64,000 nt of DNA, taken from contig JAOUEV010000007.1 of the NCBI GenBank assembly GCA_029858565.1, positions 1 to 64,000 of the forward strand, given 5' to 3'. The translations under genes and the position numbers were made by a program. The number at the start of each line of letters is the position of its first letter. The first letter of the stretch is position 1. Below, one piece after another: positions 1 through 19,815 of the stretch. The notes under the pieces are model-generated. The model did no database searches and was not told where the DNA came from. It was given only the letters and a program-made list of their open reading frames with translations. The stretch is from Nitrospirota bacterium. Its GTDB lineage: Bacteria > Nitrospirota > UBA9217.

Positions 1-115
1 GCATCGACGCGGAAACTGCCAAAAGCCGCGTAGATGCTATGTGAAAGATCAATAGGGCAATGCTGAAATCGTCGTAAAAATCGCGACGAGCGGGTCAGCT
101 CGCTCGAAACTCTAG

Positions 116-577
116 ATTAAAGAGTTTCTTTCGTTGATCGGTGCACCAGTTCCCTATTTTATCCAAATACTGGTAAAAGAAAGTCTTTACGAGATGGAAA
201 GACGCGGGCTAAAGACACTTAGCGCTGACATGATCAAGAAAGCCTACCGCGAAGAAGTACTGGGTCCAGCAAGCAGGACGTACTTCGAGCATTATTTCAC
301 GCGGTTGAAGGATTATTACGATGATAATACCGAGCATGTGGCGAAGCGACTTATTCTCGAAGTTGCGCGGAATACGAGGGCCGGTAAAACTGAATTATTC
401 AGATTGTTCCGTTTGGTAAGTCAGGGCAAAATGGGCGACGAAATGTTCAGTTATCTGATGACAGATTTGGAGAATGATTTCTATGTGATCTATGATATCG
501 AGAAAGAACAATATTATTTCTCAACCAATATCTTGAGAGACTGGTGGCTCAGATATCACGATCTGGTGGAGGAATAA
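116..577 (+). pseudogene. 5'-truncated P-loop ATPase (C-terminal part only), partner of the downstream ATPase-TPR gene
   Basis: Frame is open only after TAG at 113-115; no Walker motifs remain. GAPVPYFIQ and the tail LENDFY..Y.FS.NILRDWW resemble C-termini of ATPase_2/AAA_16-type proteins. Stop is 2 bp before the next ATG. Confidence 0.6.
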
Positions 578-579
578 TC

Positions 580-3162
580 ATGCGATTCTATAAATATACA
601 CCAGGATTGCTTTCCCCGGAAATCATCGAGCAAACTCTTATCGGGCGAGATTTAGAACTAAACAATCTTGAACGCATTATAAAAAATACAGCGACGGGGC
701 AAAGCTGTTCTCATGCGATTCTTATCGGGCCGAAAGGCATCGGCAAAAGTCATCTTTTGCAGATTTTCTATCACAGTATCAACGGAACCATAAAAAGAGA
801 CGGATTTTCAACGTATCGCGAGAAGTTCGTTCCTGTTATTTTCCCTGAGGAAGAGTATCCGGGAAATATCGCGAAGTTTATTAAACTTATTCTTTACTAT
901 TTATCACGAAAGCAAGACTTGACATTACCCCCTATGCCTACAGCACTGACCAATGCTGGTGTACTCGGAGAGAAAGCAAAAGAAGAAGGTATCGAATATA
1001 TAAAAACATTCAGGATGAAAACAGGGAAAAGCTTGCTCCTCCTGGTTGACAATCTGAACGACATTATCGAGCGTTTTACAGAAGAAGATCAGGCAACTTT
1101 GCGAGAATTGTTGACCACCTGTGACAGTTTGCTTCTAGTGGGTGCTGCGCCCACACTCTTCGATTCTATCATTAACCATAATAAACCGCTTTATAACTTT
1201 TTCGAAGTCATATGGCTTAAAGATCTATCGTTTGAGGATAGTATCGCACTCCTGAGGAGATATGCGGATCTTGAAGGCAAGACGGATATCGCGCTGGAGC
1301 TAAGGGAAAAAGAAGCAAAATTGAGAGCCATATACGAGCTGGCCGGCGGTAATCCAAGACTACTTCTAAGTCTTTATCACATTATTGCGGAAAAAGATCT
1401 CTCTTCTGTGGAAGAAACTTTTCTAAAGGTTCTCGATGAACTATCCCCGTATTTTCGAGAACGAATGAAGGATTTGTCCGAGCAACAGCAGGAAATTATT
1501 GATGCGATGGCAAAAGCCGACCGCTTGCTCACACCGACTGAAATTGCAGCAAAATGTCACATGCAAGTTAATATAGTTAATGCTCAGCTTAAGCGGTTGG
1601 AAAAAGTTGGATGTGTAAAGATATCCAAAAAGCATGCAAAAAAAACTTTATACGATTTTAGTGAACGTCTCTTTAGCCTTTGGAGACAGATGAGAATTGA
1701 GGCCGGAAGAAAACGCTTAGGCTTTATCGTTAAATTACTGGAAATATGGTTCACTAGAGATGAATTGTTTGCGTACTTAGATAAAACTCTTGGCACTATA
1801 CGTGAGCGATTAACTAGTGATTTAAGTGGTGTTAAACCGTTTATTGATAGACTCTGGTACATAAAGGAGGCAATAAAAGAATTTAAAGGCCACTCAGAAG
1901 CACACACAGCTTTTCAGCGCAAGGAGCATGATGTAGCTCTTTCTTTGTTGAAAGAGGAAATTCATCGAGCGCCTAATAATCCTGTCTTATGGCATAATCT
2001 TGGGGTTGTCTTTTTTAATCTTAGGAAATTTAAGGATGCATTCACGTCATTCCAGAAGGTTACGCAGCTCAAACCAAATGATTCTGAAGGGTGGGCTAAT
2101 CTTGGTTCAGCTGCTTATGAGTTAGGTGACGCAAATACAGCTATTGACGTGTTGAAGAAAGCTGTTGAAGCGCGACCAGATGACGCGGACACGTGGAACA
2201 ATGTTGGTACTGTTTATTTGAACCTTAAGGAATATACAAACGCTCTCCAAGCCTTCAAGGAGGTAATTAGAATTAGGCCTGCTGATGTTCCAGCGTGGAC
2301 GAATTTAGGAAATACTTATAATAGCATGGGTAAATACGATGAGGCTCTGGATGCCTATAATAACGTATTAAAATACAAACCAGATGATAGTGACGCATGG
2401 AATAATATCGGGGTAACACTTGATAACCTCAAACAGTTCCCGCGTGCGATTGACGCATATAAAAAAGCTATAGAGATAAACACTGATAAACAGCGCACAT
2501 GGTATAACTTGGGCATTACATACGCCAATACGTCAAAATATGAAGAAGCAGCCAATGCATTTGAGCATGCGGTTAAGTTGAGACCGGATAGTCCAGAGTC
2601 GTGGAATAATTTAGGGAGCTCGTATGCAGCTCTTCAGCGGTTCGAGGATGCATTGGTGGCCTATCAGAAATCAATTTCACTTCGTGCTGAAGGTAGTGCT
2701 GCAATATACAATTTAGCTGTAACGTATGATCAACTACATCGCTATGATGAGGCTCTCGATAACTACGAGAAAGCGCTGAAAATTAATTCGAACGAAGCCG
2801 GAGCGTGGAATAATCTTGGCGTTATATATGGTCGACGCAAGAATCTTGAGAAGGCAATTGATTGCTTTCGGCGAAGTTTGTTTATTGATGTCAATGATGA
2901 AGATAGTATTGCTAACTTATTATTTGCTTTTAAACAGGCTATCGAACAGGGAAACATCACAGTGGTTAGTGATGCCTTGTTGTCTATGAAGCAATCAGGT
3001 CAAATTGAATTATTAGCGCAACTATCTCCTTTGTCTGCGTTCGTTAACTACGTGAATACTGGAGATGTTTCAGTGCTAGATAGATTACGTGTAGAGGAGC
3101 GATCTGTAGTTGAAGAAATGATAACAATGTTTAACAAGCATAATAAAATCCGCAATAAGTGA
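580..3162 (+). CDS. STAND-like ATPase with winged HTH and about 10 TPR repeats
   Basis: RBS GGAGG at 568-572, ATG 580; Walker A GPKGIGKS, Walker B LLLLVDN, GGNPRLL motif, HTH LTPTEIAAKC..NAQLKRLEKVG, repeated W.NLG TPR units; AT-rich relative to the rest of the window. Confidence 0.85.
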   Translation: MRFYKYTPGLLSPEIIEQTLIGRDLELNNLERIIKNTATGQSCSHAILIGPKGIGKSHLLQIFYHSINGTIKRDGFSTYREKFVPVIFPEEEYPGNIAKFIKLILYYLSRKQDLTLPPMPTALTNAGVLGEKAKEEGIEYIKTFRMKTGKSLLLLVDNLNDIIERFTEEDQATLRELLTTCDSLLLVGAAPTLFDSIINHNKPLYNFFEVIWLKDLSFEDSIALLRRYADLEGKTDIALELREKEAKLRAIYELAGGNPRLLLSLYHIIAEKDLSSVEETFLKVLDELSPYFRERMKDLSEQQQEIIDAMAKADRLLTPTEIAAKCHMQVNIVNAQLKRLEKVGCVKISKKHAKKTLYDFSERLFSLWRQMRIEAGRKRLGFIVKLLEIWFTRDELFAYLDKTLGTIRERLTSDLSGVKPFIDRLWYIKEAIKEFKGHSEAHTAFQRKEHDVALSLLKEEIHRAPNNPVLWHNLGVVFFNLRKFKDAFTSFQKVTQLKPNDSEGWANLGSAAYELGDANTAIDVLKKAVEARPDDADTWNNVGTVYLNLKEYTNALQAFKEVIRIRPADVPAWTNLGNTYNSMGKYDEALDAYNNVLKYKPDDSDAWNNIGVTLDNLKQFPRAIDAYKKAIEINTDKQRTWYNLGITYANTSKYEEAANAFEHAVKLRPDSPESWNNLGSSYAALQRFEDALVAYQKSISLRAEGSAAIYNLAVTYDQLHRYDEALDNYEKALKINSNEAGAWNNLGVIYGRRKNLEKAIDCFRRSLFIDVNDEDSIANLLFAFKQAIEQGNITVVSDALLSMKQSGQIELLAQLSPLSAFVNYVNTGDVSVLDRLRVEERSVVEEMITMFNKHNKIRNK

Positions 3163-3194
3163 CTGTGGACGAGAGAACCAATAGGGGGCCGTCC

Positions 3195-3234
3195 GGGGTC
3201 AGACATGAATCTGTAGTTATTAACAAGACTATCC
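3195..3234 (+). repeat. Repeat family A (GGGTCAGAC core), copy nearly identical to 7214-7251
   Basis: GGTCAGACATGAATCTGTAGTTATTAACAAGACTATCC vs GGTCAGACATGAATCTGTAGTTATTAACGAGACTATCC (one mismatch). Confidence 0.85.
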
Positions 3235-3261
3235 GAACATTTAGCTTCCGGTCTGTACATA

Positions 3262-3308
3262 TGACATCGAGCGCGATCAAGGCCGGGGAGTGAATTCTCT
3301 CCGGCCTT
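3262..3308. repeat. Repeat family B hairpin (REP-like/terminator), nearly identical to 8315-8361
   Basis: TGACATCGAGCGCGATCAAGGCCGGGGAGTGAATTCTCTCCGGCCTT; the AAGGCCGG...CCGGCCTT stem recurs at 4168, 4376, 6431, 8332, 9332, 22587 and 24080. Confidence 0.85.
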
Positions 3309-3428
3309 TCTTGTCCCTCCTGCTGCCTGTAGCCAACGACATCCTGGCGTCAAGCTTCAGAACTGAGATACTATAAAATATGCCTTTTCGCGCAACTTAC
3401 CTTATACTCTAGATATAAGGGAGGACCT

Positions 3429-3599
3429 ATGAAAGACGAAAAAGCTTGTGGAAGTATTTACGGTTTGGCATTCATCGGCGCGGCGGTATATTTCATTCAG
3501 CATTCAACTTCCTTCTGGGGCGGTGTGCTGGGCTTGCTCAAGGCGGCTGTCTGGCCTGCGATCCTCATGTACAAGCTGCTCGGCTACCTCGGCGTGTGA
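3429..3599 (+). CDS. Small 56-aa two-TM membrane protein (not in ORF track)
   Basis: RBS GGAGG, then MKDEKACGSIYGLAFIGAAVYFIQHSTSFWGGVLGLLKAAVWPAILMYKLLGYLGV*. Confidence 0.7.
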   Translation: MKDEKACGSIYGLAFIGAAVYFIQHSTSFWGGVLGLLKAAVWPAILMYKLLGYLGV

Positions 3600-3611
3600 C
3601 GAAGGAATCCC

Positions 3612-3851
3612 ATGAAAGTCATCATCACCGGAACAACAGGCATGGTGGGCGAGGGCGTTCTGCATGAATGCCTTCTTCATCGAGACGTTGAGTCTGTTCT
3701 GTCCATCAGCAAGCGGCCCTGCGGCATGGAGCATGCCAAGCTGAAAGAGATCCTCCATCAGGACTTTTCCGACTTCAGCTCTATTGAACAGGACCTGGCC
3801 GGGTACAATGCCGCGTTCCTCTGCATGGGCGCTTCTTCCGGGACATCCTAG
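3612..3851 (+). pseudogene. 3'-truncated copy of NAD(P)-binding epimerase/SDR (paralog of 7288-7953)
   Basis: ITGTTGMVG Rossmann motif; closely matches the first ~75 aa of 7288-7953, then stops after FLCMGASSGTS. Confidence 0.85.
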
Positions 3852-4036
3852 AAAGGGCGGGACATTGCTGTCCCGCCCCTGCCACTGAGAGCGCGTTGTC
3901 CGGCCGCCCTTTATGGTGTCGGCGGAAGGAATGTCACGAAATCGTAGTCGACAATACTGAGCCGGCCGTACAAATAGTAGCCATGGATCGTGGTCCAGAT
4001 CCCGCTCCACGTGCTCGTCCAATGAACAGGGACCAT

Positions 4037-4225
4037 GGGGTCAGGTATTGAATGTTTGACTTTGGAACGTTCAGGGCCGACCTCAATTTTATGAGCAACT
4101 TAGGGGACGTTGTTTCTGAGCAACTTAGGGGACGTTGTTTCTGAAATTGCGTTGTGATTAAGCGATCAAGGCCGGAAAGAAAATTCTCTCCGGCCTGTTC
4201 GGGTCAGACTTGAATCTGTGGTTAT
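4037..4225 (+). repeat. Cluster of repeat families A, C (25-bp tandem duplication), B and A
   Basis: GGGGTCAGGTATTGAATGTTTGAC 4037; TGAGCAACTTAGGGGACGTTGTTTC twice (4092-4141); hairpin 4168-4196; GGGTCAGACTTGAATCTGTGGTTAT 4201. Confidence 0.8.
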
Positions 4226-4326
4226 CTATGGATACCCAGTGGTTCTGTATGGTATTCAAACATACCTTGGAGGAGTTGCTGAGTGCACTACGTGTTGAAA
4301 GGCTGGCAGGGAAAACTTGGCATCAC

Positions 4327-4606
4327 GGACGGTAGAGGGTCAGACCTGTAATCCTGTAATGTAGAGAACGTCAACGGCCGGAGAGAGAAATCTTTCCGGC
4401 CTTTTTGTCTTGAACGGATGCTTGATACGTGACGTACAATAATACATTATATGTACGTCACATGGGGAGGCACATATGACCACGAAACTGACCCTGCGAT
4501 TGAACGAGGCCGTTATCAATAAGGCGAAAAAGACTGCAAGCAAAAAGGGCGTTAGCCTGTCGCGCATGGTGGAGGACTATTTCAAGGCAGTTGGGGACCA
4601 GGGAGC
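4327..4606 (+). repeat. 280-bp direct repeat, copy 1 (copy 2 at 6384-6663)
   Basis: Constant offset of 2057 bp with about ten mismatches; contains family A core, family B hairpin, TA operator and the antitoxin 5' half. Confidence 0.95.
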
Positions 4607-4634
4607 TAATACTATCCGGGTCGGACCAAGCTAA
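4476..4634 (+). pseudogene. Truncated copy of RHH antitoxin; tail and stop supplied by repeat family D
   Basis: Identical in protein to 6533-6781 up to AVGDQGA, then NTIRVGPS*. Confidence 0.85.
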
Positions 4635-4715
4635 GTGATTGTTGAACAATCGAAAGCCTGGAAAAGTTCCCTTCAAAATTTCCTTAGAGGTGCCTTTTCA
4701 GGGGCAAAAAGGTAC
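4614..4715 (+). repeat. Repeat family D (ATCCGGGTCGGACCAA..., ~100 bp)
   Basis: Aligns with 19294-19397 over ~100 bp and with 10823-10885 over ~60 bp. Confidence 0.85.
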
Positions 4716-4885
4716 CTGTAAGTATCCGTAATCCAAATTTCACCTGTTCGATTATCTTCAAAACAACTCCCCCGACCTCTCCATGGCTAATGGCTCTGGA
4801 TGAGGATCATTTCTCGACGCAATAAACCATCCGGAAATGTTTATAACTCGTTGATTAATTTATCTTATATATTAAATTTGAGGAC

Positions 4886-5020
4886 AAATACTAATTTGTT
4901 ACTAATATCACTCGTATTAGTATTTACTTGACAATGCTTTAGTATAAATGTAAATTGTATTAGTTTTAGTAGATAATGATAACTACTAATTTCCTACTAA
5001 TCTACTTGCTACTAGTAGTT
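4886..5020 (+). promoter_or_regulatory. sigma70 promoter of fic with multiple TACTAA/TTAGTA operator-like half-sites
   Basis: TTGACA 4928-4933, 17 bp, TAAATT 4951-4956; perfect inverted repeat AAATACTAAT 4886-4895 / ATTAGTATTT 4916-4925. Confidence 0.6.
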
Positions 5021-5031
5021 GGAGCGCCAAA

Positions 5032-6354
5032 ATGAAAATTCCAGAGAAAACACCGGATAGTAGACCTATTGACGTGCCATTAACGCCTGAGATATCAATC
5101 CGGCTTAGCGAAATTATAAGAAAAGCAAACAATGAATATATGTATTGGGATGAATTTAAATACCTAACCATGCCGGTGGGGATTGCGCCTGAGCAGGCAT
5201 GGAGTTTGTTGAAAATGTATCGATTGGTACAAAAAAAATTCATTTCACTCGTCGATTCCCATAACAATCCTTTTTCCTATTGTCTCCCGGATTGTGTTCA
5301 CCGGGACATTCATTATATCGACCAGCAGGCGGGTGGATCGATAGTTGTTGATGATCCATCGGTCGCTTCCGAGGAAAGGCGCAGATACATGATGCGGTCC
5401 CTGGTCGAGGAGGCTATATCGTCAAGCCAGATCGAGGGCGCGGCAACTACGCGAGTTGTCGCAAAAGAAATGTTGAGAACCGGGAGAAAACCGAAAGATC
5501 ATTCAGAACAAATGATTTACAATAATTTTCAGTCGATGCAGATGCTAAAAAAGCATTTGAAGGAACCATTATCTATTGAACTGCTATTAGAGATTCACCG
5601 GCACATGACAAGGGACACACTGGAGGACGCTTCCTGGGCGGGGCGGTTCAGAACGCCTGCGGATGATAAAATCTATGTCTTTGACAACGATGAACAAACC
5701 GTTCTTCATGTACCGCCCGATGCTGCCAAGATTGCCGATTTAATGCAGAAGCTCTGCGATTTTGCCAATAGTGACGGACAGGATGAATTTGTTAATCCGA
5801 TCATCAAAGGGATTCTGCTCCATTTTTGGCTGGCCTACGTTCATCCGTTTATGGACGGAAATGGACGAACCGCGAGAGCGCTCTTCTATTGGTATGTACT
5901 TAAGCACGGATATTGGGGATTCGAATATCTCTCGGTATCCACTGCAATCCTGAGCGCACGGGCGCAATACTATCGATCATTTCTGTATTCTGAGATGGAT
6001 GGCAATGATGCAACTTACTTTATCGTCTATAATCTGAAGGCGCTTCACAAGGCGATTGAAATTCTGAACGAATATATTGCCAGAAAACAAAAAGAGAAAG
6101 ACAACGTAAGAAGACTTTCCGGCAAATATCCCATGCTGAATTATCGGCAAAGATCGCTGCTTGCGGCTGCGTTACAAAAAACAAATGCTGTATACACGAT
6201 TGAAACACACGCTAAAATTCACGGCGTAACGTATCAGACGGCAAGAACAGACCTTCTTGGACTCAAAGATTTAGGATTGCTGATTATGGCTAAATCGGGA
6301 AAGAAATTCATATTTTCAGTAACCGTTGAATCGCTAGCACGAATAGAAAAATAG
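5032..6354 (+). CDS. Fic family protein (class II type) with C-terminal wHTH
   Basis: Canonical HPFMDGNGRTAR; N-terminal inhibitory motif SSQIEG; C-terminal GVTYQTARTDL HTH. Confidence 0.92.
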   Translation: MKIPEKTPDSRPIDVPLTPEISIRLSEIIRKANNEYMYWDEFKYLTMPVGIAPEQAWSLLKMYRLVQKKFISLVDSHNNPFSYCLPDCVHRDIHYIDQQAGGSIVVDDPSVASEERRRYMMRSLVEEAISSSQIEGAATTRVVAKEMLRTGRKPKDHSEQMIYNNFQSMQMLKKHLKEPLSIELLLEIHRHMTRDTLEDASWAGRFRTPADDKIYVFDNDEQTVLHVPPDAAKIADLMQKLCDFANSDGQDEFVNPIIKGILLHFWLAYVHPFMDGNGRTARALFYWYVLKHGYWGFEYLSVSTAILSARAQYYRSFLYSEMDGNDATYFIVYNLKALHKAIEILNEYIARKQKEKDNVRRLSGKYPMLNYRQRSLLAAALQKTNAVYTIETHAKIHGVTYQTARTDLLGLKDLGLLIMAKSGKKFIFSVTVESLARIEK

Positions 6355-6383
6355 CAGCCAAGAATCAAGCGTCTTAGGGTATG

Positions 6384-6663
6384 GGACGATAGAGGGTCAG
6401 ACCTGTAATCCTGTAATGTAGAGAACGTCAAAGGCCGGAGAGAGATATCTTTCCGGCCTTTTTGTCTTGAACGGGTGCTTGACACGTGACGTACAATAAT
6501 ATAATATATGTACGTCACATGGGGAGGCACATATGACCACGAAACTGACCCTGCGATTGAACGAGGCCGTTATCAATAAGGCGAAAAAGACTGCGAGCAA
6601 AAAGGGCGTCAGTCTGTCGCGCATGGTGGAGGACTATTTCAAGGCAGTTGGGGACCAGGGAGC
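6384..6663 (+). repeat. 280-bp direct repeat, copy 2
   Basis: See 4327-4606. Confidence 0.95.
6479..6518 (+). promoter_or_regulatory. TA promoter with palindromic operator
   Basis: TTGACA 6479-6484, 17 bp, TAATAT 6502-6507; inverted repeat GTGACGTACA 6486-6495 / TGTACGTCAC 6509-6518 (also at 4429-4461). Confidence 0.7.
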
Positions 6664-6781
6664 GCAGGAAGTGCGGGAATCGCCGGTCCTGTATGAAATA
6701 TCCGGTGTTCTCTCGGGCAAAAAGGATACGGAACAGCTGCGCGCCGGATACCGGAAGCATCTTGCGGAGAAGTACCGGTGA
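6533..6781 (+). CDS. RHH-type antitoxin (DUF6364-like)
   Basis: MTTKLTLRLNEAVINKAKKTA..GVSLSRMVEDYF; overlaps the PIN gene (GTGA). Confidence 0.85.
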   Translation: MTTKLTLRLNEAVINKAKKTASKKGVSLSRMVEDYFKAVGDQGAQEVRESPVLYEISGVLSGKKDTEQLRAGYRKHLAEKYR

Positions 6782-7200
6782 AGTCCGTTCTCTGCGACAT
6801 CAATGTCATCCTCGACATCTTCCTGAAGCGGGACCCGCATTACACTCCTGCCGCCCGGCTGTTCTCCCTTATCGAAGAAAAGAAGATCAACGGATTTCTG
6901 TCAGCGCAAAGCTTTCCGACGATGTTTTATATCCTGTCGAAAGAGCTGAAACGGGACAAGGCCATGCGGGTGCTCGAAAAGCTCAGGATCGTCTTTCGGG
7001 TGGCGGCTGTCGACGAGAAGGTGATCGATCTTTCGCTCGCCTCGACCTTCAAGGATTTTGAGGACGCTGTGCAGTATTATTCAGCGTTGCACGTGAAGGC
7101 TGACTGTCTGATCACCAGAAACAAGAGCGACTACCGCACGGACCGCCTCCCGATCATGACGCCCGAGGAGTTTCTGGCGATCATGAGAGGAAACACCTAG
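6778..7200 (+). CDS. PIN-domain (VapC-like) toxin
   Basis: VLCDINVILD, DFEDAVQY, LITRNKSDY acidic PIN motifs. Confidence 0.9.
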   Translation: MKSVLCDINVILDIFLKRDPHYTPAARLFSLIEEKKINGFLSAQSFPTMFYILSKELKRDKAMRVLEKLRIVFRVAAVDEKVIDLSLASTFKDFEDAVQYYSALHVKADCLITRNKSDYRTDRLPIMTPEEFLAIMRGNT

Positions 7201-7213
7201 GGGGAGCTGTCCA

Positions 7214-7251
7214 GGTCAGACATGAATCTGTAGTTATTAACGAGACTATCC
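7214..7251 (+). repeat. Repeat family A copy
   Basis: One mismatch to the 3195 copy; starts 13 bp after the PIN stop. Confidence 0.85.
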
Positions 7252-7287
7252 AGGAAGACTCGCAATTAACATGAGGCAAACTTTTCC

Positions 7288-7953
7288 ATGAAGATCCGCG
7301 CGATCATAACAGGGGCAACAGGCATGGTGGGGGAGGGTGTTCTGCAGGAATGCCTTCTCCATCCAGACGTTGAGTCCGTCCTGTCCATCAGCAGGCGGCC
7401 TTGCGGCATGCAGCATGCCAAGCTGAAAGAAATCCTCCATCAGGACTTTTCGAACTTCAGCGCTATCGAACAGGAGCTGTCCGGGTACAATGCGGCTTTC
7501 CTCTGCATGGGCGTGTCCTCCGTGGGCATGAGCGAGGAGAAGTACCGCCACCTCACCTATGACCTCACCATGGCCTTGGCCCGCACGCTTTCCAAACTGA
7601 ACCCTGACATGACGATCTGCTATGTCTCCGGCATGGGCACGGACAGCAGCGAAAAAGGGCGGGTCATGTGGGCGCGGGTGAAAGGAAAGACCGAGAACGA
7701 CCTGCTGGGGCTGCCCTTCCGGTCGGCCTATATGTTCCGTCCTGGCTTCATGAAGCCGACCAAGGGACTCAGGAACACCCATGCAATCTACCGAGTGCTC
7801 GACCCGCTCTTTCCGCTCGCAAATCTGCTCTTCCCCCGCGCACTCCTGACCCTGAAGGAGGTCGGCCTTGCCATGATCAACAGCGTGGGAAGCGGCCCTG
7901 AGAAGCGGGTGCTCGAGATACGCGACATCGCGGCGATGGCCCGGAAGTCCTGA
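7288..7953 (+). CDS. NAD(P)-binding epimerase/atypical SDR (CC3/TIP30-like)
   Basis: ITGATGMVG; VSGMGTDS; WARVKGKTEN; FRPG. Confidence 0.85.
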   Translation: MKIRAIITGATGMVGEGVLQECLLHPDVESVLSISRRPCGMQHAKLKEILHQDFSNFSAIEQELSGYNAAFLCMGVSSVGMSEEKYRHLTYDLTMALARTLSKLNPDMTICYVSGMGTDSSEKGRVMWARVKGKTENDLLGLPFRSAYMFRPGFMKPTKGLRNTHAIYRVLDPLFPLANLLFPRALLTLKEVGLAMINSVGSGPEKRVLEIRDIAAMARKS

Positions 7954-7956
7954 AGG

Positions 7957-7991
7957 GCAGCTTAGGGTACGTTGTTCCTGAAATTGCGTTG
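7957..7991 (+). repeat. Repeat family C copy
   Basis: GCAGCTTAGGGTACGTTGTTCCTGAAATTGCGTTG matches 4120-4154 and in part 19461-19481. Confidence 0.8.
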
Positions 7992-8103
7992 GAGACATCC
8001 GGGGGATGCACACGTTGTGCAGTGCATGAACATTAGCATTGCTATCAAATCGATGAGCCGCTAGAATACCAATGCATTCAATTATATTATTCCGGGGGGG
8101 AAC

Positions 8104-8262
8104 ATGAAAAGGATTACAGCGGCGGTTGCAGCAGGGATGATGGTTTGCGGATTGCTGGTGAGCGGGTGTGAACAAAAGAAGGAAGAGCCGAAGCCGACTC
8201 CTGCGGAGCAGAAGCCCGCGGGTGAGCAGGCGCCGGCAAAGAAATCACCAGTAGGCTGCTGA
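8104..8262 (+). CDS. Small 52-aa lipoprotein (not in ORF track)
   Basis: MKRITAAVAAGMMVCGLLVSG-C lipobox, Pro/Lys/Glu linker, C-terminal PVGC*. Confidence 0.7.
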   Translation: MKRITAAVAAGMMVCGLLVSGCEQKKEEPKPTPAEQKPAGEQAPAKKSPVGC

Positions 8263-8314
8263 TGGCCCGAAACCCGAACGTCTTAGGAACATCTTAGGAT
8301 CAAGTCGTTACAAT

Positions 8315-8361
8315 TGACATCGAGCGCGACCAAGGCCGGGGAGTGAACTCTCTCCGGCCTT
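8315..8361. repeat. Repeat family B hairpin
   Basis: Two mismatches to 3262-3308. Confidence 0.85.
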
Positions 8362-8419
8362 GTTGTTCGAATATATCGCACTGCACGTCAGAATACCCGG
8401 AAAAAACCCTGCTGACGGC

Positions 8420-8448
8420 TTTACATATCCTCACGGTGTTGCTACAAT
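8420..8448 (+). promoter_or_regulatory. sigma70 promoter upstream of carbonic anhydrase
   Basis: TTTACA-17bp-TACAAT with extended TG. Confidence 0.55.
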
Positions 8449-8513
8449 AAAATGACCTTGAGGCTGCTGCACGAAGGGCAGTGTCGGGAAATCATCTATG
8501 AGGAGGAGTGGGG

Positions 8514-9236
8514 ATGGTATCAAAGCATGTTGCGGGAAAAGTAGTGGTACTTGTGGGGTGCATGGCGCTTGTCGCCGGATTGGCGTTCTCGAGCGGCGGC
8601 GGCGGGGTGTCGTCTGATGAGGCGTTGCAGATGCTGATGGAGGGCAACAAGCGGTATGTGGAGAGCAAGATGACCAGTTCCGAGCGGTGTACGGCAAGCT
8701 CTCGCGCGGCGATCGCGGCGAGTCAGAAGCCCTACGCGGTCGTTCTTACCTGCTCCGACTCCCGCGTTCCTCCCGAGATCGTCTTTGACAAGGGCCTGGG
8801 CGAGATCTTCGTCGTCCGCGTCGCGGGCAACATTCCCGATCCGGTCGTCGTCGGCAGCATCGAATATTCCGTGGAACATCTGGGCTCGTCGCTCGTGATG
8901 GTGCTCGGGCACGAACGATGCGGCGCTGTCAAGGCAACGGTGGAGTCCAAGGGGAAGAGTAGCGGCAGCGAGAACATCGATGCCATCGTGAGGACCGTCG
9001 AGCCCAGCGTCAAGGCGGCTGCCTCGGCCTGCGCCGCGTGCAAAGGCGAGAAGAACTGCGCGGAGACGAAAACGAGCGAGTTTGTAGAGTGCGTGATCGA
9101 AACGAACGCAGCGGCCGTTGCCGGACAGCTCACGAAGAAATCCAAGATCCTCAAACACCTGGTCGAGGAGAAAAAGATAAAGATTATTGCGGCCAAATAC
9201 GATCTCGATGATGGCGTCGTGACCCTGCTCAAGTAG
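8514..9236 (+). CDS. Beta-class carbonic anhydrase with signal peptide
   Basis: CSDSRV, FVVRVAGN, HERCGAV zinc ligands; hydrophobic N-terminus. Confidence 0.92.
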   Translation: MVSKHVAGKVVVLVGCMALVAGLAFSSGGGGVSSDEALQMLMEGNKRYVESKMTSSERCTASSRAAIAASQKPYAVVLTCSDSRVPPEIVFDKGLGEIFVVRVAGNIPDPVVVGSIEYSVEHLGSSLVMVLGHERCGAVKATVESKGKSSGSENIDAIVRTVEPSVKAAASACAACKGEKNCAETKTSEFVECVIETNAAAVAGQLTKKSKILKHLVEEKKIKIIAAKYDLDDGVVTLLK

Positions 9237-9331
9237 GATGCAGGCATGTTCCGTTCAGTCTGCTGGCCCGGACCGGCAGCGGGCCAGGCTTAATTATTAA
9301 GATTCCGATTCACATGGATATACGCGCAATC

Positions 9332-9365
9332 AAAAGGCCGGAGGGCGAAAGCTTTCCGGCCTTTT
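9332..9365. terminator. Family B hairpin/intrinsic terminator
   Basis: AAAAGGCCGGAGGGCGAAAGCTTTCCGGCCTTTT. Confidence 0.7.
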
Positions 9366-9412
9366 CCGTTTAATCCTCCATCCCCGGCCCCCAGGCCGAT
9401 AACCTGATATAC

Positions 9413-9898
9413 TTGAACCCTGTGATGGACATCCGAGAACCTGATGCAGCAAGTTGCAACGGAACGTGCTGCAGGAAGGAGGTTCCTTTGAGAATCTTCG
9501 GGAAGATCATTCTGGTGGTCGTGGTCACCCTGGGGCTGCTGGTGACCGGATTCGCCCTGGGCTTTCCGATCGGCATGCACCGCGGTTTTTCATCAGGAAG
9601 TGAATGGGCCATGTTGGAGGCAAAGCTCGCGGCCCGGGAGGCAGGGGTGGTCATGCCGGTCTATATCGACGAGGACGGATGGTTTCACGTAGTGCTCCGG
9701 AAGCAGGCCGATGACGAAGGGACGACCAGGAAACAGCCGGTCTCCGGGGACGTGCAGGCCAGTACGCTGCTCTTTCTGTCCGCGACAGAGAGCGGCTCCG
9801 AGGGATCCGCTCTGCCGGCGGTGACGATTCCCCTGCTGGCCCGTGACGACCGGGACGCGGACGCCCGGTGTGTCCGGCTGTCCGATGTGATACAGTGA
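9413..9898 (+). CDS. Hypothetical single-TM protein
   Basis: ORF with one hydrophobic segment; start uncertain (ATG 9425 possible). Confidence 0.45.
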   Translation: MNPVMDIREPDAASCNGTCCRKEVPLRIFGKIILVVVVTLGLLVTGFALGFPIGMHRGFSSGSEWAMLEAKLAAREAGVVMPVYIDEDGWFHVVLRKQADDEGTTRKQPVSGDVQASTLLFLSATESGSEGSALPAVTIPLLARDDRDADARCVRLSDVIQ

Positions 9899-10042
9899 TT
9901 TTTTCTTAATAGTGATTTCGTCTGAAATCGGGTGGCGGAGCGGGATGCTGCCGACGATTGCAATCTTTTCTCCCGGGATTTATAGTGCTTCTCAGCACGG
10001 TGCGGGCAGGATCAGCCGGAACCGGCGTTCTGAGGAGGAGAA

Positions 10043-10798
10043 GTGAAAAAATTCAGCTGCAGTCTTTGCGGTTCCGTGTGGCAGAAGCAGGGCAAGACCA
10101 ATTGCTGGAGCGCGGACCCTGCTGACGCGCCGGCGAAGCCGGGATATTGTCCCTCCCGGGACCATCTGGCGCTCATCAAGAAGAGCTTCGGCAGATACAA
10201 GGGAGCGGGGCAGGACGCCAGGATCGCGCAGGTGGCCACGCAGGTCGAAGGCCTCTGTTATGCGCGGGCGGAAGGCGGGGTCCTGCGGGCACAGTGGACC
10301 CGCGTGGAGGACACGATCGCTTTCGCCAGGCTGATGGGCTGCCGACGCATCGGCATCGCCACATGCATCGGGCTGCTGGACGAGACGAACCGGCTGTCGC
10401 TCATCCTGCAGGCGCAGGGTTTCGAGGCGCTCTCCGTCTGCTGCAAGAGCGGGAGCATTGACAAGCTCGAGCTCGGGCTCACTGAAGCGGACAAGGTCCG
10501 GCCCGGCACGTTCGAACCTGCCTGCAACCCCGTTGCGCAGGCCCGGCTGCTGAACGGCGCGAAAACGGACATGAACATCATCATGGGGCTCTGCGTGGGC
10601 CATGACATGCTGTTCAGCAAACACTCCAAAGCACCGGTCACGACCCTGGTCGTCAAGGACCGGGTGACCGGCCACAATCCCGCAGCCGTGCTCTACGGCC
10701 AGAACTTCTATTACAAGCGTCTCCTGACGCAGCAGCTCCCGGTCGAACTCCGAAGCGGCGCCAGCAGGCGTCGCGGGCCAGCGAAGAAGCGGAAGTAG
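10043..10798 (+). CDS. DUF1847 Cys-rich metal-binding protein
   Basis: TRVEDTI, GIATCIGL, VCCKSG, CNPVAQA, GLCVGHD, VKDRVTGHNP. Confidence 0.88.
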   Translation: MKKFSCSLCGSVWQKQGKTNCWSADPADAPAKPGYCPSRDHLALIKKSFGRYKGAGQDARIAQVATQVEGLCYARAEGGVLRAQWTRVEDTIAFARLMGCRRIGIATCIGLLDETNRLSLILQAQGFEALSVCCKSGSIDKLELGLTEADKVRPGTFEPACNPVAQARLLNGAKTDMNIIMGLCVGHDMLFSKHSKAPVTTLVVKDRVTGHNPAAVLYGQNFYYKRLLTQQLPVELRSGASRRRGPAKKRK

Positions 10799-10822
10799 GG
10801 AAGTGCTGCGGGAAGGGAACAC

Positions 10823-10885
10823 ATCCGGGTCGGACCAAACCAAGTGATTGCTGGACAATCGGAATCCGGAAAAAACGGCCCTCGA
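10823..10885 (+). repeat. Repeat family D copy
   Basis: ATCCGGGTCGGACCAAACCAAGTGATTGCTGGACAATCGGAATCCGGAAAAAACGG, 24 bp after the DUF1847 stop. Confidence 0.85.
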
Positions 10886-11036
10886 TCCCATAGGTCCGGT
10901 TGCCTTTATTGCATGAGACGTGACGAGCGGCAGGGAATCAGACGTAACTCTTCTGAATGCCATTGTATTCCCGATAGCGGGCAACAACCCGTAAAGAGCT
11001 GACCCCCGGTGACGTTGGTAGTTTGCGCCCGGACCG

Positions 11037-12083
11037 TCATGCATGCCGGGTGAAGATCCCGTCCATCTCGGGCGCGATCTCACAGAAGGCCTTGAGCACC
11101 GCCGGATCGAAGTGCTCCGGCATCGTCCGGCCGTCGCCCTCGGTGATGATCCGGAACGCCGCGGGGTGGCTCAGCGGCGGCTTGTAGGGCCGCCGGCACC
11201 GCAGCGCATCATAGTGGTCCACGAGCATAACGATCCTGGCCGCGAGGGGGATCGCCTCGCCCGCGAGGCCGCGCGGATACCCGCCTCCGTCCCACCGCTC
11301 ATGGTGGCTCAGGGCGATCTCCGCTGTCATCTGGATCCGGGGGAACGCCGACCCGGTGAGGATCCGCTCGCCGATGACCGTATGGGTCTTCATGATATCG
11401 AACTCCTCCGGCGTCAGCGGACCGGTCTTCAGGAGGATGCTGTCGGGGATCCCGATCTTCCCGATGTCATGCAGCTGGGCTGCGAAGGTGATCGTCTCGA
11501 CGAAATCCGGCGGCAGGTCCATGACCCGGGCGACCCTGCCCGAGTACGTTCCGATCCGTGCGATGTGGGTGCCGGTGTCCGTGTCCCGGTATTCGGCTGC
11601 GGCGGTGAGCCTGCGGATCATTTCGTCGCTCATGGTCCGAACCTGCTGCGTCCGCTCGCGCACCTCCTGTTCGAGGAGCTGGTTGTGCCGGAGCATGAAG
11701 TCGCCGTACGCCTTGATCACCAGCAGGTTCCTGAGCCGGATGGTCAGTTCCGTCCGGTCGATGGGCTTGGACAGGAACTCGTTGGCGCCGGCATCGAGAC
11801 CGCGGAGCCGGGATGCCCGGTCGTGCAGCGCCGTCACCATGATGACCGGGATGGTCCGGGTGGCGGGGTCGTCCTTGATGCGCCGGCACGCCTCGTAGCC
11901 GTCCAGGACCGGCATCATGATGTCGAGGATGATCAGGTCGGGCGCGCCGTCACGGGCCCGCTGCACCGCTTCCTCGCCGTTGGCCGCGGTGTCCACGGCA
12001 TATCCCAGGGGGACGATCCAGTTGATGAGCAGACGGACGTTGCTTTCCTCGTCGTCCACGATCAGGATCTTTTCGCCGGGCAT
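11037..12083 (-). CDS. Response regulator with HD-GYP phosphodiesterase domain (RpfG-like)
   Basis: REC (LIVDDE, LDIMMP), [21 protein letters not shown]. Confidence 0.93.
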
Positions 12084-14934: not shown

Positions 14935-15312
14935 TCAGACGTTTCCATCGATTCGGATATCCCCGGTCTCCTTCGTTCTACTATATGATTCGGCCAAGAG
15001 ATCGGTCTGCAGCAGGCGGGCAAGGATCTTAGCGTCGAGCTTGTCGGTGTTGATCTTCGCTTCTGCAATTGCCCGGGTTTTGCGTGGATGGACGAGATGG
15101 ATCTCCGGGCTCTTGCCCTCCGGCAGTCCGTAGCAGGAGTAGCGGCCGCCGGTTGCCTCGATGGCGATCTTGCTGTCTACGGGAGGCCGGTCAGCGAAAC
15201 CGATGTGGTCATCCGGCTTATTCTTGAGCCGAACCGTCTCTATGACCTGGCCTTTGTCGTCCATGCCGGCTGCAACAGCGTAAGGCTCATGATAGTTTAC
15301 TCCTACGTGCAT
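14935..15312 (-). mobile_element. IS110-family transposase relic (N-terminal DEDD domain, degenerate)
   Basis: MHVGVNYH, IAIEATG, LVHPRKTRAIAEAKINTDKLDA match IS110 motifs with the first Asp mutated; C-terminal domain absent. Confidence 0.8.
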
Positions 15313-15769
15313 GGCTGCACCGCAGCTTGGGTTTGTGCCATTCCGCCAGGATGGGCGCCAAATATCCCGTGTATGCGGGATTGGTCCTGTAAGACCGATT
15401 ATAGTCAACGGCTGTTGCAGTCTTTTCCTGTTGTCAGGCTTTAGACGTGCAACTATCGACTGACATCCGGTTCGTTCTCTCCGACCGTTTGTCAGAAAAA
15501 AATGATCTTCCTTGTCTCCAGCCCTACCCTTGGGTAAAAAAACTTTCCTCCGCATGTATGCAAAATTCGACTTACCGCTACAAAGAATAATATCCTGCAA
15601 AAGAACGATTCTTTGTGAGCAAAATCACAGGTGCGTTTTATCACGTCAAGGAAGAGTCTGCTATGCTGATAGGAAGTCGCGGTGATATCCGGAGGGAATG
15701 CTCTCTCTGAGAGAGATGGACCGATTGCCGAACGTTCCCCGTGCCCAAGCAAAAGGAGGACCTGCATCC

Positions 15770-17743: not shown

Positions 17744-17844
17744 AAGCGCGGGTTGGGATCGTCTTCTACGCTTGCGCCGAAACCAGGAAGCGTCTTCGGG
17801 TCTCTTTTGAGGCACTCCTGCCGGTTCTCTGCTACCCTTGCCTC

Positions 17845-17990
17845 ATGTCCCGCTCCCTTCGCATAGAGTATGCAGGTGCCGTCTATCACATGACTCCCGA
17901 CGAAACGAGAAGAAGCCTTTCTTCTAGGCTGACCAGGATCGCGATAGATTTCTCAATACGCTTCAGCGCGTCAACAGACGGAACCGGTCG
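17845..17990 (+). mobile_element. Decayed RAYT/REP-associated Y1 (HUH, IS200-like) transposase, 5' fragment
   Basis: MSRSLRIEYAGAVYHMT then, across frameshifts, NEKKP and DQDRDRFLNTLQRVNRR, matching the MARPLRIEYPGAVYHVTSRGN N-terminus of this family. Confidence 0.78.
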
Positions 17991-18424
17991 TGAAATGCGG
18001 CTATCATCAAAGCCGGCCTGCACGGCATCTGCCGGTCCACCGTTCGACGATCAGCCGTTGACTGCGAGCATGCGAAATTGCAACAAACGAGACGTAATAA
18101 TCATATGAAGGCACCTCGAACCGTACTGGCGTATGCATCGCGGCAGGCGGGCGGATAGTGTCGTCCGAAGATCTGGCTGATTACCGCGAAGAGCAGCCCC
18201 GCGCCGTGGACGTACCTGACCAGCCGGAGCTTCCCGTCCCCACCATGCGTCTGCGATCAAGAAAACGGGTCCAGAAGAAATGATCAAAAAGCAACGGGGC
18301 CCGCAAGCGAGCGGGCGAGCATGCACGGTCCGTTCTTTTGCTATACTGAGACATTCATATCAGACGATCGCGGCATGCCCTGTCAGAGACCGAAAATACC
18401 AAGCAAGCACATTGGGCCGAATCC

Positions 18425-19318
18425 ATGAAGACGCATATTCTGCAAATAGTCCTTATCCTCTGTCTGCCGCTGAACGCTATTGCAGCCGCTGCGGAGGAGG
18501 TCATGACGGGTGGAGAAGAGGTCTATCGCGTGCTGGAGGGCGACAGCCTCCTCCTGATCAGCGCGAAGTTCGGCGTGAATCTGGAAAGAATCAGGAATGA
18601 GAACAGTCTCGATCCCGAGCAGCCGCTCCGGCCGGGGACGGAACTTTTGATCACGACGCGGAAGATCGCGCCCGCGAAGGTCGATCAGGGGCTCGTGATC
18701 GATATCCCCGGCAGGATGCTCTACTATTTCAAGGCAGGCAGACTGGAGCTGTCCTGTAGCGTGGGCCTCGGCAGGCCGGGGTGGAGGACGCCTGCGGGCG
18801 GCTTTGTCATTACCGGCAAGGAAGAGAATCCCGTCTGGCACGTGCCCGCGTCGATCCAGGCAATCATGCAGGAGAAGGGCATGCCTGTTCTGACCGCGGT
18901 CCCGCCGGGGCCGGACAATCCACTCGGCAAGTATGCTCTCTACACCTCCCGGAAGGGGATCTGTATTCACGAGACCATCTGGCCCACGACGGTGTACCGG
19001 TTCCGGAGCCATGGATGCATCCGATTGCTGCCGCAGGACATCGAGCGGCTGTACCGGGACGTCGATGATGGAACTCCGGGAGAGTTGATCTACGAACCGG
19101 TGAAGGTCGCCGTGTCCGGCGACGGGAAGGTGTTTCTGCAGGTAGACCCGGATATATACAAAAAAGCGCGAGACCCGATGGATGTGGTCCGGCGGCGGCT
19201 CGATGAGCTCGGTGCAGCAGGCAAGGTGGATTGGGGCAAGGTCGCAGCCGTCGTTGCCGAAGAGGCGGGCGTTGCCGAAGAGGTCACGGATATATCCGGG
19301 TCGAACCAAACCAACTGA
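18425..19318 (+). CDS. LysM + L,D-transpeptidase (YkuD/ErfK family)
   Basis: Signal peptide, LysM, PPGPDNPLG, IHET..SHGCIRL. Confidence 0.9.
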   Translation: MKTHILQIVLILCLPLNAIAAAAEEVMTGGEEVYRVLEGDSLLLISAKFGVNLERIRNENSLDPEQPLRPGTELLITTRKIAPAKVDQGLVIDIPGRMLYYFKAGRLELSCSVGLGRPGWRTPAGGFVITGKEENPVWHVPASIQAIMQEKGMPVLTAVPPGPDNPLGKYALYTSRKGICIHETIWPTTVYRFRSHGCIRLLPQDIERLYRDVDDGTPGELIYEPVKVAVSGDGKVFLQVDPDIYKKARDPMDVVRRRLDELGAAGKVDWGKVAAVVAEEAGVAEEVTDISGSNQTN

Positions 19319-19397
19319 TTGTTGAACGATCGAAATCCGAAAAAAATGGTCCTCGGAATTGCCTTAGCGCTGCTTTTCCCGGGGTAGAATAGGCCTT
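19294..19397 (+). repeat. Repeat family D copy overlapping the transpeptidase stop
   Basis: ATCCGGGTCGAACCAAACCAACTGATTGTTGAACGATCGAAATCC...; aligns with 4614-4715. Confidence 0.85.
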
Positions 19398-19815
19398 GAA
19401 GAATCAGCGGCTTTAATTCCCTCCTTCTCGATCGTTTTCAAGTCAGCGACGCTAGCTGGAGATGTTGTTCCTGGAATTGCGCAGTGACTGAACATTGTGC
19501 ATAACAGACCGGGAAGAAGGGAGTCTGGCGGCGACTGCCAGATCGACGAGGGAGTGCATTTTGGGAACGCCGGCCGGACATGCTGCTCCGATACGTCAGG
19601 CGCCACGATAAGTTCGAGCCAGGTGAACGCGGACTTCGATGCGCTGAAGACAGCGGTCGACGCCAAACAGGACAAGCCGGGGCTCGGGTCCTGCCCGACG
19701 ACGAGCGCAGGCCAGGTGGCCTGGGCCCACATCAGCTGCCCCAATGCGGGGGGAGGCTGCTTTGTCGTGAACAGCTACAACCCGACAGGCGGGGCTTTCG
19801 TGGTCCACGGTGCCG

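Follow-up and report, generated by a model that had tools for sequence, protein, structure and literature searches.

The window analysed here comprises the first 64,000 nucleotides of a contig (C89:1-64000) from a metagenome-assembled genome (MAG) of a Nitrospirota bacterium (3.9 Mb, 144 contigs, 57% GC; coded G000), and this work concerns the short, co-oriented repeats that stand between the accessory genes at its left end. An earlier reading of this DNA, made from the letters only, had taken three repeat families, named A, C and D, for polar recombination junctions by which a Y1 transposase captures and shuffles genes. Here, the families were traced to the terminal inverted repeats (TIRs) of transposable elements which we assign to the TIRtron type and whose gene, called TIRYT, encodes a Y1/HUH transposase similar to the REP-associated tyrosine transposases (RAYTs). 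In the following, contigs of the source genome carry C numbers, the genomes of relatives are G001, G003, G011, G012, G015 and G048, and fetched loci carry L numbers.

All genes between 134 and 10798 that are supported by Pfam lie on the plus strand, which is in line with what had been stated for every gene from 0.1 to 10.8 kb. They encode a STAND-type protein (AAA_16 and TPR), a fragment of an epimerase (epimerase'), a truncated ribbon-helix-helix (RHH) protein of the DUF6364 type (RHH'), a Fic protein, an RHH protein with a PIN_3 toxin, a full epimerase, a beta-carbonic anhydrase and a DUF1847 protein. The STAND-TPR, Fic and RHH/PIN cargo named before was recovered at the level of Pfam domains, Fic also by PADLOC. 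Since the GC content over 1-7 kb is 40-47% compared to 57% in the genome, no DNA-level homologue of the STAND gene was found among the 40 relatives searched and the Fic protein is SoFic-like (PADLOC SoFic model, E=4.8e-46), the left part of the stretch can be read as an acquired, defence-flavoured island that was truncated by an insertion sequence (IS), with ordinary genes from ~7.2 kb onwards.

The repeats were mapped by reading the sequence, with a repeat finder and by regular-expression scans. Sites of family A (GGGTCAG/GGTCAGRY) were found at 3196-3197, 4038-4039, 4201-4202, 4337-4338, 6394-6395 and 7214, those of family C at 4100, 4125 and 7962 and those of family D at 4614 and 10823; all are on the plus strand, their density is far above chance and the positions agree within ±1 nt with those of the sequence-only reading. 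The three family C sites are the only matches (3/3) of the strict pattern in the genome, a possible degenerate copy being located near 19467, and the strict pattern of family D has four matches genome-wide, including one at 19294 that had been overlooked and one at C90:6474. The copy at 7214 reads AGGTCAGA (cAGGTCAGA), with one mismatch to the core GGGTCAG(A/G), and is 97% identical over 38 nt to the copy at 3197. A "bare core" at 92 had also been counted as family A. It reads GGGTCAGC and is located in the final ~25 nt of 115-118 nt that form, at an assembly break, the end of a multicopy, unrelated IS; because this terminal segment is found, fully identical, at six other contig ends, the site was placed outside family A. 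The sequences part directly after ...AAACTCTAG, and the segment at 1-117 of the window ends ...CGAGCGGGTCAGCTCGCTCGAAACTCTAG.

GGTCAGRY has 15 matches in the window (8.58 expected), of which six lie within 3197-7221 (~0.5 expected there), all on the plus strand; two pairs among these six are copies from larger duplications, which leaves ~4 independent sites. Over the whole genome, no enrichment is seen for the bare 8-mer GGGTCAG[AG] (302 matches compared to ~340 expected from our composition estimate). Since it occurs at chance level, only the extended forms of the motifs are meaningful. In a genome-wide pattern scan the longer families C and D were almost confined to this stretch.

Identity of the three repeat families

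The first 26 kb of the window were compared with the whole genome by blastn and the matches were inspected. Family C (GGGGACGTT(G/C)TTTCTGAAATTGCG) was found in inverted orientation on both sides of a 325-aa Y1 gene on C44; the copy at 4095-4154 is identical in 24/24 and 27/28 nt to the two inverted repeats that flank this gene (C44:1685-711), and variants sharing the GGGACGTTGTT head flank genes on C123, C138 and C99. Family D was recovered at either end of the 268-aa Y1 gene of C55, where the match extends over ~100 nt, and its copy at 4612-4711 also aligns with those at 10823, 19294, C90 and C138. A-type tips flank Y1 genes on C72, C51, C88 (GGGGTCAGACTTCAT..), C120 and C66. The long form of family A (A-long) makes up both ends of a 309-aa Y1 gene in the same-genus genome G003 (L014:6398-7327), with 27/28 identical nt at one end and 90% identity over 42 nt at the other. 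The variant A'' (GGGTCAGACCTGTAATCCTGTAATG, at 4337/6394) resembles TIRs of homologues in other Nitrospirota records, among them GGGGTCAGACCTGGAATGCTGGAATG, which borders the TIRYT genes of L080 and L095. Families A, C and D are the TIRs of three TIRYT subfamilies, whose tips read GGGGTCAG.., GGGGACGTTGTT.. or GGGTCGGACC.., and the link of the motifs to RAYT-type Y1/HUH transposases that had been proposed is real and specific.

The TIRYT proteins match Pfam Y1_Tnp with 46-54 bits (cut-off 23) and, below the cut-offs, Bac_DnaA_C or HTH_23 at the C-terminus; their sole or best NCBIfam match is REP_Tyr_transpos (70.6, 77 and 92 bits, cut-off 80). Seven intact TIRYT genes are present elsewhere in the genome, all of which encode the HUH motif and six of which encode the tyrosine motif [RK]Y..NP. 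In total, Y1_Tnp has 12 matches in the genome, several of them truncated and none on C89. The Y1 relic reported at 17845 is real: segments 17799-17984 and 17993-18092 match the 5' and 3' parts of the C66 Y1 gene with 77% and 84% identity (blastn). Among homologues from public genomes, TIRs were found in 30 of 34 full-length loci and the tip GGG(G)TCAGRC in 29 of 34, at 44-69 nt upstream of the ATG in 28 of these 29 and at 149 nt in L100. Homologues with the GGGGTCAG tip occur in Nitrospirota, Clostridia, Desulfobacterota, Planctomycetota and others.

Most copies stand without a transposase gene. In the source genome, solo copies were found on C40, C90, C94, C103, C105, C117, C118 and C135, and A-long has three copies. 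The TIR-A pattern is present in 16 of 61 genomes of the bacterial family with 1-5 copies each (control matches: 0); no TIRYT gene lies within 1.5 kb at 22 of 30 fetched family loci, and no TIRYT match was obtained at 16 of 23 metagenome loci. Between 134 and 10798, six of 13 open reading frames (ORFs), i.e. STAND, RHH', Fic, PIN, epimerase and DUF1847, have a TIR tip that overlaps their 3' end or is at most 40 nt away from it, and downstream of epimerase' a TIR cluster (4037-4239) starts after ~190 nt.

The consulted sections of Di Nocera et al. 2013 (PMC3733652) describe TIRtrons as RAYT-like genes flanked by TIRs that share GGGGWSAS, and some of these TIRs as "moderately abundant" repeat families, "organized as REPs in dimers or clusters". 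In those of Quentin et al. 2018 (PMC6006769), most TIRYTs are placed in subclass 2.1 (TnpA_REP-like), which is defined by a DnaA_C/HTH C-terminus; RAYT groups are also treated by Bertels et al. 2017 (PMC5581495). The motifs of the window and their cognate Y1 genes can be assigned to this element type because the encoded Y1/HUH protein is RAYT-like and has a domain similar to Bac_DnaA_C/HTH_23 at its C-terminus, because the TIRs keep a constant distance from the gene and because solo TIRs are dispersed in low to moderate copy number and sometimes clustered. The family A tip GGGGTCAG fits GGGGWSAS, whereas those of families C (GGGGACGT) and D (CGGGTCGG) fit it in part and depart from it otherwise. 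Unlike the TIRtrons described, three TIR families are found here within 20 kb, in a single orientation and at edges of truncations and duplications, and the host is a Nitrospirota MAG.

Repetitive extragenic palindromic (REP) sequences with their RAYTs (REPtrons), bacterial interspersed mosaic elements (BIMEs) and REPINs are similar in that short extragenic repeats are inverted around a Y1 gene and also dispersed, mostly 3' of genes, and in the NCBIfam match of the proteins. Unlike REPs and REPINs, however, the motifs are not palindromic, and REP-type hairpins were rejected because the single-stranded DNA folds no better than shuffled sequences (z = +0.5 to +1.3 for A, A'' and C; -1.7 and +1.1 for D). 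Further, there are no inverted doublets, copy numbers are ~5-15 per family and not hundreds, and the Y1 genes are multicopy and partly decayed, hence IS-like and not single-copy domesticated genes. IS200/IS605 elements use Y1 enzymes and have subterminal hairpins, at both ends on one strand, but no TIRs, whereas the elements found here have TIRs of 20-100 nt. IS91/ISCR enzymes are Y2 rolling-circle transposases; in the present region, the cargo has no transposase gene next to it and an ori/ter asymmetry is not apparent.

Two other identities were considered. Family D could have been the 3' fragment of a tRNA (att site); ARAGORN found no tRNA on C89, C90 and C138, the contigs which hold the four genome matches of the family D 12-mer CCGGGTCGGACC. 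A known RNA family was rejected as well, since Rfam gave no match over the whole window at the gathering threshold.

Table 1 Features in the left part of the window (coordinates in nt; all on the plus strand)
Feature	Coordinates	Strand	Remarks
Terminal segment of an unrelated multicopy IS at the contig start	1..117	+	100% identical to 6 other contig ends
STAND-type NTPase with TPR repeats (AAA_16 + TPR)	544..3162	+	GC 40-43%
Solo TIR, family A-long (GGGGTCAGACATGAATCTGTAGTTATT)	3184..3234	+	22 nt past STAND stop; 90% identical to 7202-7251
H unit: conserved 5' flank and GC-rich terminator-like hairpin (GGCCGGGGAG..CTCTCCGGCC)	3235..3308	+	85% identical to 8287-8361
Epimerase gene, truncated duplicate, 79 aa	3612..3851	+	homology with 7303-7522 stops at 3840
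Solo left-end relic of a second A-type TIRtron (GGGGTCAGGTATTGAATGTTTGAC)	4037..4062	+	25/25 nt identical to leader of a Y1 gene, C118:144-120
Solo TIR, family C, with 25-nt tandem duplication of flank and tip	4095..4154	+	covers the copies listed earlier at 4100 and 4125
H hairpin copy	4162..4196	+	89% identical to 3273-3307
Solo TIR, family A-long variant (GGGTCAGACTTGAATCTGTGGTTAT)	4201..4239	+	
Duplicated block: A'' TIR 4337-4366, H'' hairpin 4376-4401, palindromic promoter/operator, RHH codons 1-44	4327..4606	+	
Solo long TIR (~100 nt), family D, abutting truncated RHH'	4612..4711	+	aligns with both ends of Y1 element C55:1479-2414
Low-GC Fic module: AT-rich leader with ACTAAT-type repeats and Fic gene 5032-6354	4840..6383	+	Pfam Fic
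A'' TIR 6394-6423, H'' hairpin 6430-6461, RHH antitoxin (DUF6364) 6533-6781, PIN toxin 6778-7200	6384..7200	+	
Solo TIR, family A-long, paralogue of 3184-3234	7202..7251	+	2 nt past PIN stop
NAD-dependent epimerase-family gene, full copy	7288..7953	+	Pfam
Solo TIR, family C	7957..7991	+	4 nt past epimerase stop; 91% identical to 4120-4154
H unit following small lipoprotein ORF	8287..8361	+	
Solo TIR, family D	10821..10924	+	25 nt past DUF1847 stop
Decayed TIRtron	17799..18092	+	Y1 gene with ~625-nt internal deletion; damaged left TIR
Solo TIR, family D	19292..19384	+	overlaps last codons of LysM/YkuD-type gene 18425-19318

Duplications, joints at the tips and hairpins

That two genes have partial duplicates beside the motifs, as had been noted, was confirmed with a repeat finder and by alignment. 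Block 4327-4606 is 96% identical to 6384-6663 (10 differences) and includes RHH residues 1-44, and 3621-3840 is 88% identical to 7303-7522, which covers the N-terminus of the epimerase. Further, 3184-3234 and 3235-3308 are contiguous and their counterparts 7202-7251 and 8287-8361 lie 1035 bp apart; this spacer carries the epimerase gene and a small lipoprotein ORF (8104-8262), after which the H unit follows. Since the similarity between the A copies at 3184 and 7202 extends beyond the TIR, by 11-13 nt upstream and by 12 nt downstream, these copies are duplicates and not independent junctions. Because two A copies and two A'' copies arose by larger segmental duplication, the ~12 solo TIRs that accompany the one decayed TIRtron in the window amount to ~8 independent copies.

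Mis-joining of metagenomic contigs from related strains could in principle produce such duplications and junctions, and indeed the assembly consists of 144 contigs, the window begins in a collapsed IS repeat and related strains are present in other samples. However, independently assembled contigs of the probable source run cover 89-4362, 4448-4606, 4577-6412 and 6634-11938 with 0 mismatches and carry copy-specific bases at 4332, 4538-4556 and 6389, and the depth is flat (12.6-14); since this is so, the gene order is credible, and since the two 280-bp copies differ at 10 positions, both of them exist. The source-run contigs (Logan) derive from the same reads as the assembly and are, as evidence, not fully independent of it. 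Taken together, an assembly artefact is very improbable.

Tips of the motifs coincide with one gene truncation (RHH'/D) and with one edge of the 280-bp duplication (4327/6384, at the A'' tip). RHH' equals RHH over 44 residues; their homology extends to 4606, shortly before the D tip, which starts at 4612-4614, and the truncated ORF (4476-4634) terminates inside the family D TIR; likewise, the D copy at 19294 provides the final codons and the stop of the LysM/YkuD gene. RHH' (4476-4606 compared to 6533-6663) retains the promoter/operator palindrome and all three coding differences are synonymous. RHH' may thus persist as an expressed, DNA-binding stub, although n=3 differences are weak evidence for this. 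On the minus strand, a 41-codon ORF (3914-4036) has its start directly at the tip of the 4037 TIR relic and points in the opposite direction; blastn of the genome gave no homologue of this ORF, which may be spurious.

The family C copy at 4095-4144 contains a 25-nt tandem duplication that comprises 8 nt of flank and 17 nt of tip. A scan for such structures, which covered A-type tips at all loci and in the genome (the family C case lies outside the scanned pattern), found them at 26 of 207 TIR tips and at two of 780 control positions 300-500 nt away, a ~49-fold difference. The duplicated unit consists of 8-19 nt outside the tip, often plus the first 1-6 nt of the tip itself. Examples are C135:69903-69934, C72 (both TIRtron left ends), L019, L057, L061, L066, L082, L087, L090, L100, L105 and others. 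These duplications of flank and tip are probably footprints of cleavage and rejoining at the tip by the TIRYT protein; no description of them was found in the consulted sections of the TIRtron and RAYT literature.

Hairpins of the form GGCCGGRRAG..CTYYCCGGCC occur at seven loci in the genome, all within 3281-24107 of the window. They are terminator-like, two of them score in a consensus terminator scan and several are paralogues from local duplications. G012 also has seven hairpin loci, five of them within 18 kb (C10:123258-141679). Because the copies in G012 follow htpG, groEL and an S41 peptidase gene and are orthologous with hairpins of two further genera, we regard the hairpins as conserved transcript-end structures of this bacterial family and not as cassette sites. 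The stem GGCCGGAGAG..CTCTCCGGCC is regionally clustered, with 7/7 loci in the source genome and 5/7 in G012, and three of the four TIR-A copies of G012 lie within ~4 kb of a hairpin.

Possible scrambling or capture of genes

We consider it likely that the repeats are solo ends of TIRtrons which have accumulated in a plastic region with acquired and duplicated genes and contributed to its scrambling, and that the region is not a capture array. By analogy to RAYT/REP and IS200/IS605 enzymes, the transposases would nick and rejoin single-stranded DNA at the TIR tip, which would disperse single TIRs and create breaks; such breaks, together with homologous recombination between the repeated TIR/hairpin units, would give rise to local truncations, partial duplications and deletions. 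The identity of the motifs, their solo status, the joints at the tips and the tandem duplications of flank and tip are direct observations; from them and from the analogy we infer an enzymatic action at the tips and its causal role in the rearrangements. The solo TIRs seem to behave like low-copy REP sequences that reside in the 3' untranslated space between stop codon and terminator hairpin.

This location would also be expected if the motifs and H hairpins were domesticated modules of the 3' untranslated region, selected as transcript-end elements for termination or mRNA stabilisation like REP/BIME: the tips lie 2-35 nt past stop codons and upstream of terminator-like hairpins, TIR-A is conserved at 20-21/21 nt in eight of 19 genera, mostly without an adjacent TIRYT gene, and 13 of 18 solo TIR-A copies of the relatives are downstream of a co-oriented gene, eight of them within 80 nt of the stop codon. 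However, A, C and A'' have positive z-scores for folding relative to shuffles, Rfam provides no match, orthologous genes of the relatives usually lack the motifs and the D copies at 4614 and 19294 overwrite the 3' ends of genes, which resembles insertion damage rather than design. We therefore regard a selected transcript-end function as quite improbable.

The region resembles integron cassette arrays and clusters of attC sites lacking integrases (CALINs) in its co-oriented accessory genes, including a toxin-antitoxin pair, which are split by related short repeats. Unlike these, it is accompanied by no tyrosine recombinase on C89: PF00589 has 10 matches in the genome and 0 on this contig, which starts 134 nt before the first ORF, inside an IS copy, so that a recombinase gene may lie beyond this end. 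When the junctions of the window were read by eye, neither the R''/L''/L'/R' architecture of attC nor a GTTRRRY core was seen, and the motifs do not fold. The "cassettes" have promoters and terminators of their own, and the repeats belong to three unrelated families of transposon ends. With no recombinase on C89 and no attC-like structure seen by eye, an integron was rejected; a dedicated, integron-like array for gene capture is a minority reading to which we give little credence, and capture as such is unproven.

HUH enzymes act on one strand at specific ends, and ISCR elements mobilise neighbouring genes from a single end. In a weakened form of the integron analogue proposed earlier, gene shuffling would be polar and driven by TIRYT proteins; the tips would serve as one-ended recombination origins at which the Y1 enzyme joins segments on one strand, and genes would be captured, duplicated and reordered without an integrase. 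Indeed, segments start at tips throughout the left part (A|H-smORF-epimerase', C-C-H, A, A''-H''-RHH', D-Fic, A''-H''-RHH-PIN, A-epimerase and C-lipoprotein), the truncation point of RHH' and the D tip are at most 7 nt apart, an A'' tip marks the beginning of the 280-bp duplicate and every copy is on the plus strand. The duplications of flank and tip would likewise speak for joining of DNA at tips. In relatives, however, the same modules stand mostly without motifs: their borders coincide with tips at 0/4 loci for RHH-PIN, 0/1 for Fic, 1/4 for the epimerase and 1/5 for DUF1847. The H''-RHH-PIN unit is 77-85% conserved at four of the relatives' loci with different neighbours and with the A motif on neither side, and in G015 the Fic module with its AT-rich leader is located between genes for a P-type ATPase and a hydrolase, without a motif. 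The motifs are also found next to housekeeping genes. In G001, TIR-A and TIR-C copies lie beside genes for a cytochrome c peroxidase, a DUF3108 protein, MscS and an AsmA-like protein, and in G012 motifs and hairpins lie beside htpG, groEL and the S41 peptidase gene; this falls under a condition that the sequence-only reading itself had named as contrary to its proposal, motifs equally common beside core genes.

Further evidence against polar shuffling comes from the orientation of the copies and from the cargo. By our reading of the table, solo copies elsewhere in the source genome are co-oriented with the upstream gene in ~8 cases and not in ~8, and the A copies at 3184 and 7202 are duplicates, as described above. 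An inverted TIR pair around cargo other than a transposase gene was not seen in the examined loci; all pairs enclose a TIRYT gene (G003, G048, L061 and L066). In the metagenome contig L069, two opposed TIR-A copies lie near an RHH-PIN homologue with their tips inward, which is not the geometry of a transposon. When the flanks of the relatives' solo TIRs were compared with the source genome, they were adjacent at none of the 2-3 informative sites and, as a baseline, at 23 of 50 arbitrary control points; so few sites allow no conclusion on breaks of synteny. Among the 15 of 174 joints listed for the source-run contigs, none was an alternative joint inside 3-11 kb, which, coming from contigs only, is weak evidence at most; in runs X2-X4, short pieces were found, including TIR-hairpin adjacencies with other spacers. 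Polar shuffling of this kind is in our opinion unlikely, and slightly more so is a repeated one-ended capture in this lineage, in which a Y1/HUH transposase would have acted in trans and joined gene segments at co-oriented tips to build an integrase-free head-to-tail array of defence, toxin-antitoxin and metabolic modules. If that were true, the tandem duplications of flank and tip would be the footprint of the joining reaction. From the interpretation that had been put forward before, the connection to Y1/HUH enzymes, the local polarity and the position of tips at edges of rearrangements are retained; the role of the motifs as gene-capture junctions is not.

Several points weigh against the scrambling by solo TIRtron ends that we favour. 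The density and the uniform plus-strand orientation of the ~8 independent copies are striking and not wholly explained by duplication. The co-orientation of 13 of the relatives' 18 copies could reflect a polar mechanism rather than tolerance alone, although the pooled orientation bias is weak. In G011, an epimerase homologue is again flanked on both sides by co-oriented A-type tips (G011:C1, L008/L050), with TTAGGGTAAGGTCTTTCC 159 nt upstream and TAGGGTCAGGTCTTTCTTC 104 nt downstream; it is the single case outside the window that resembles a cargo gene bracketed by TIRs. The history of the 280-bp duplication is not reconstructable from the sequence, and enzymology or biochemistry of TIRYT proteins was not found in the consulted sections of the TIRtron and RAYT literature. 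Moreover, an intact TIRYT gene cognate to A-long or A'' was not found in the source assembly, the nearest being that on C88, which shares only the first ~13 nt of the tip, and action in trans in the source genome is therefore unproven.

TIRYT/TIRtron elements are widespread across phyla, and the window may serve as a compact natural record of how their ends behave, with solo ends from three families, the remains of one element, a gene truncated at a tip and a tandem duplication next to a tip. Since the footprint of the tandem duplications points to the position of cutting and rejoining, with a cut predicted inside the tip or immediately 5' of it, the mechanism of TIRYT proteins is testable with oligonucleotides. 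For annotation, it follows that in such genomes a cassette system should be considered for short co-oriented repeats between accessory genes only once these have been checked against the ends of the Y1 genes resident there.

The Fic module and a probable further IS relic

The leader of the Fic module (4840-6383) is rich in ACTAAT/ATTAGT repeats. In contigs of other runs (X2 and X4), pieces of the Fic gene were found with 0-2 mismatches, and the neighbouring genes there are 88-96% identical; the copy of the module in G015 is 72% identical and stands in an unrelated context. Because of these near-identical pieces beside more divergent neighbours and the copy in an unrelated context, a recent horizontal spread of the Fic module is suggested. 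Elsewhere in the window, the ORF at 14935-15600 on the minus strand has a sub-threshold match to an IS110-type DEDD transposase domain (26.1 bits, cut-off 29) and is probably another IS relic in this stretch.

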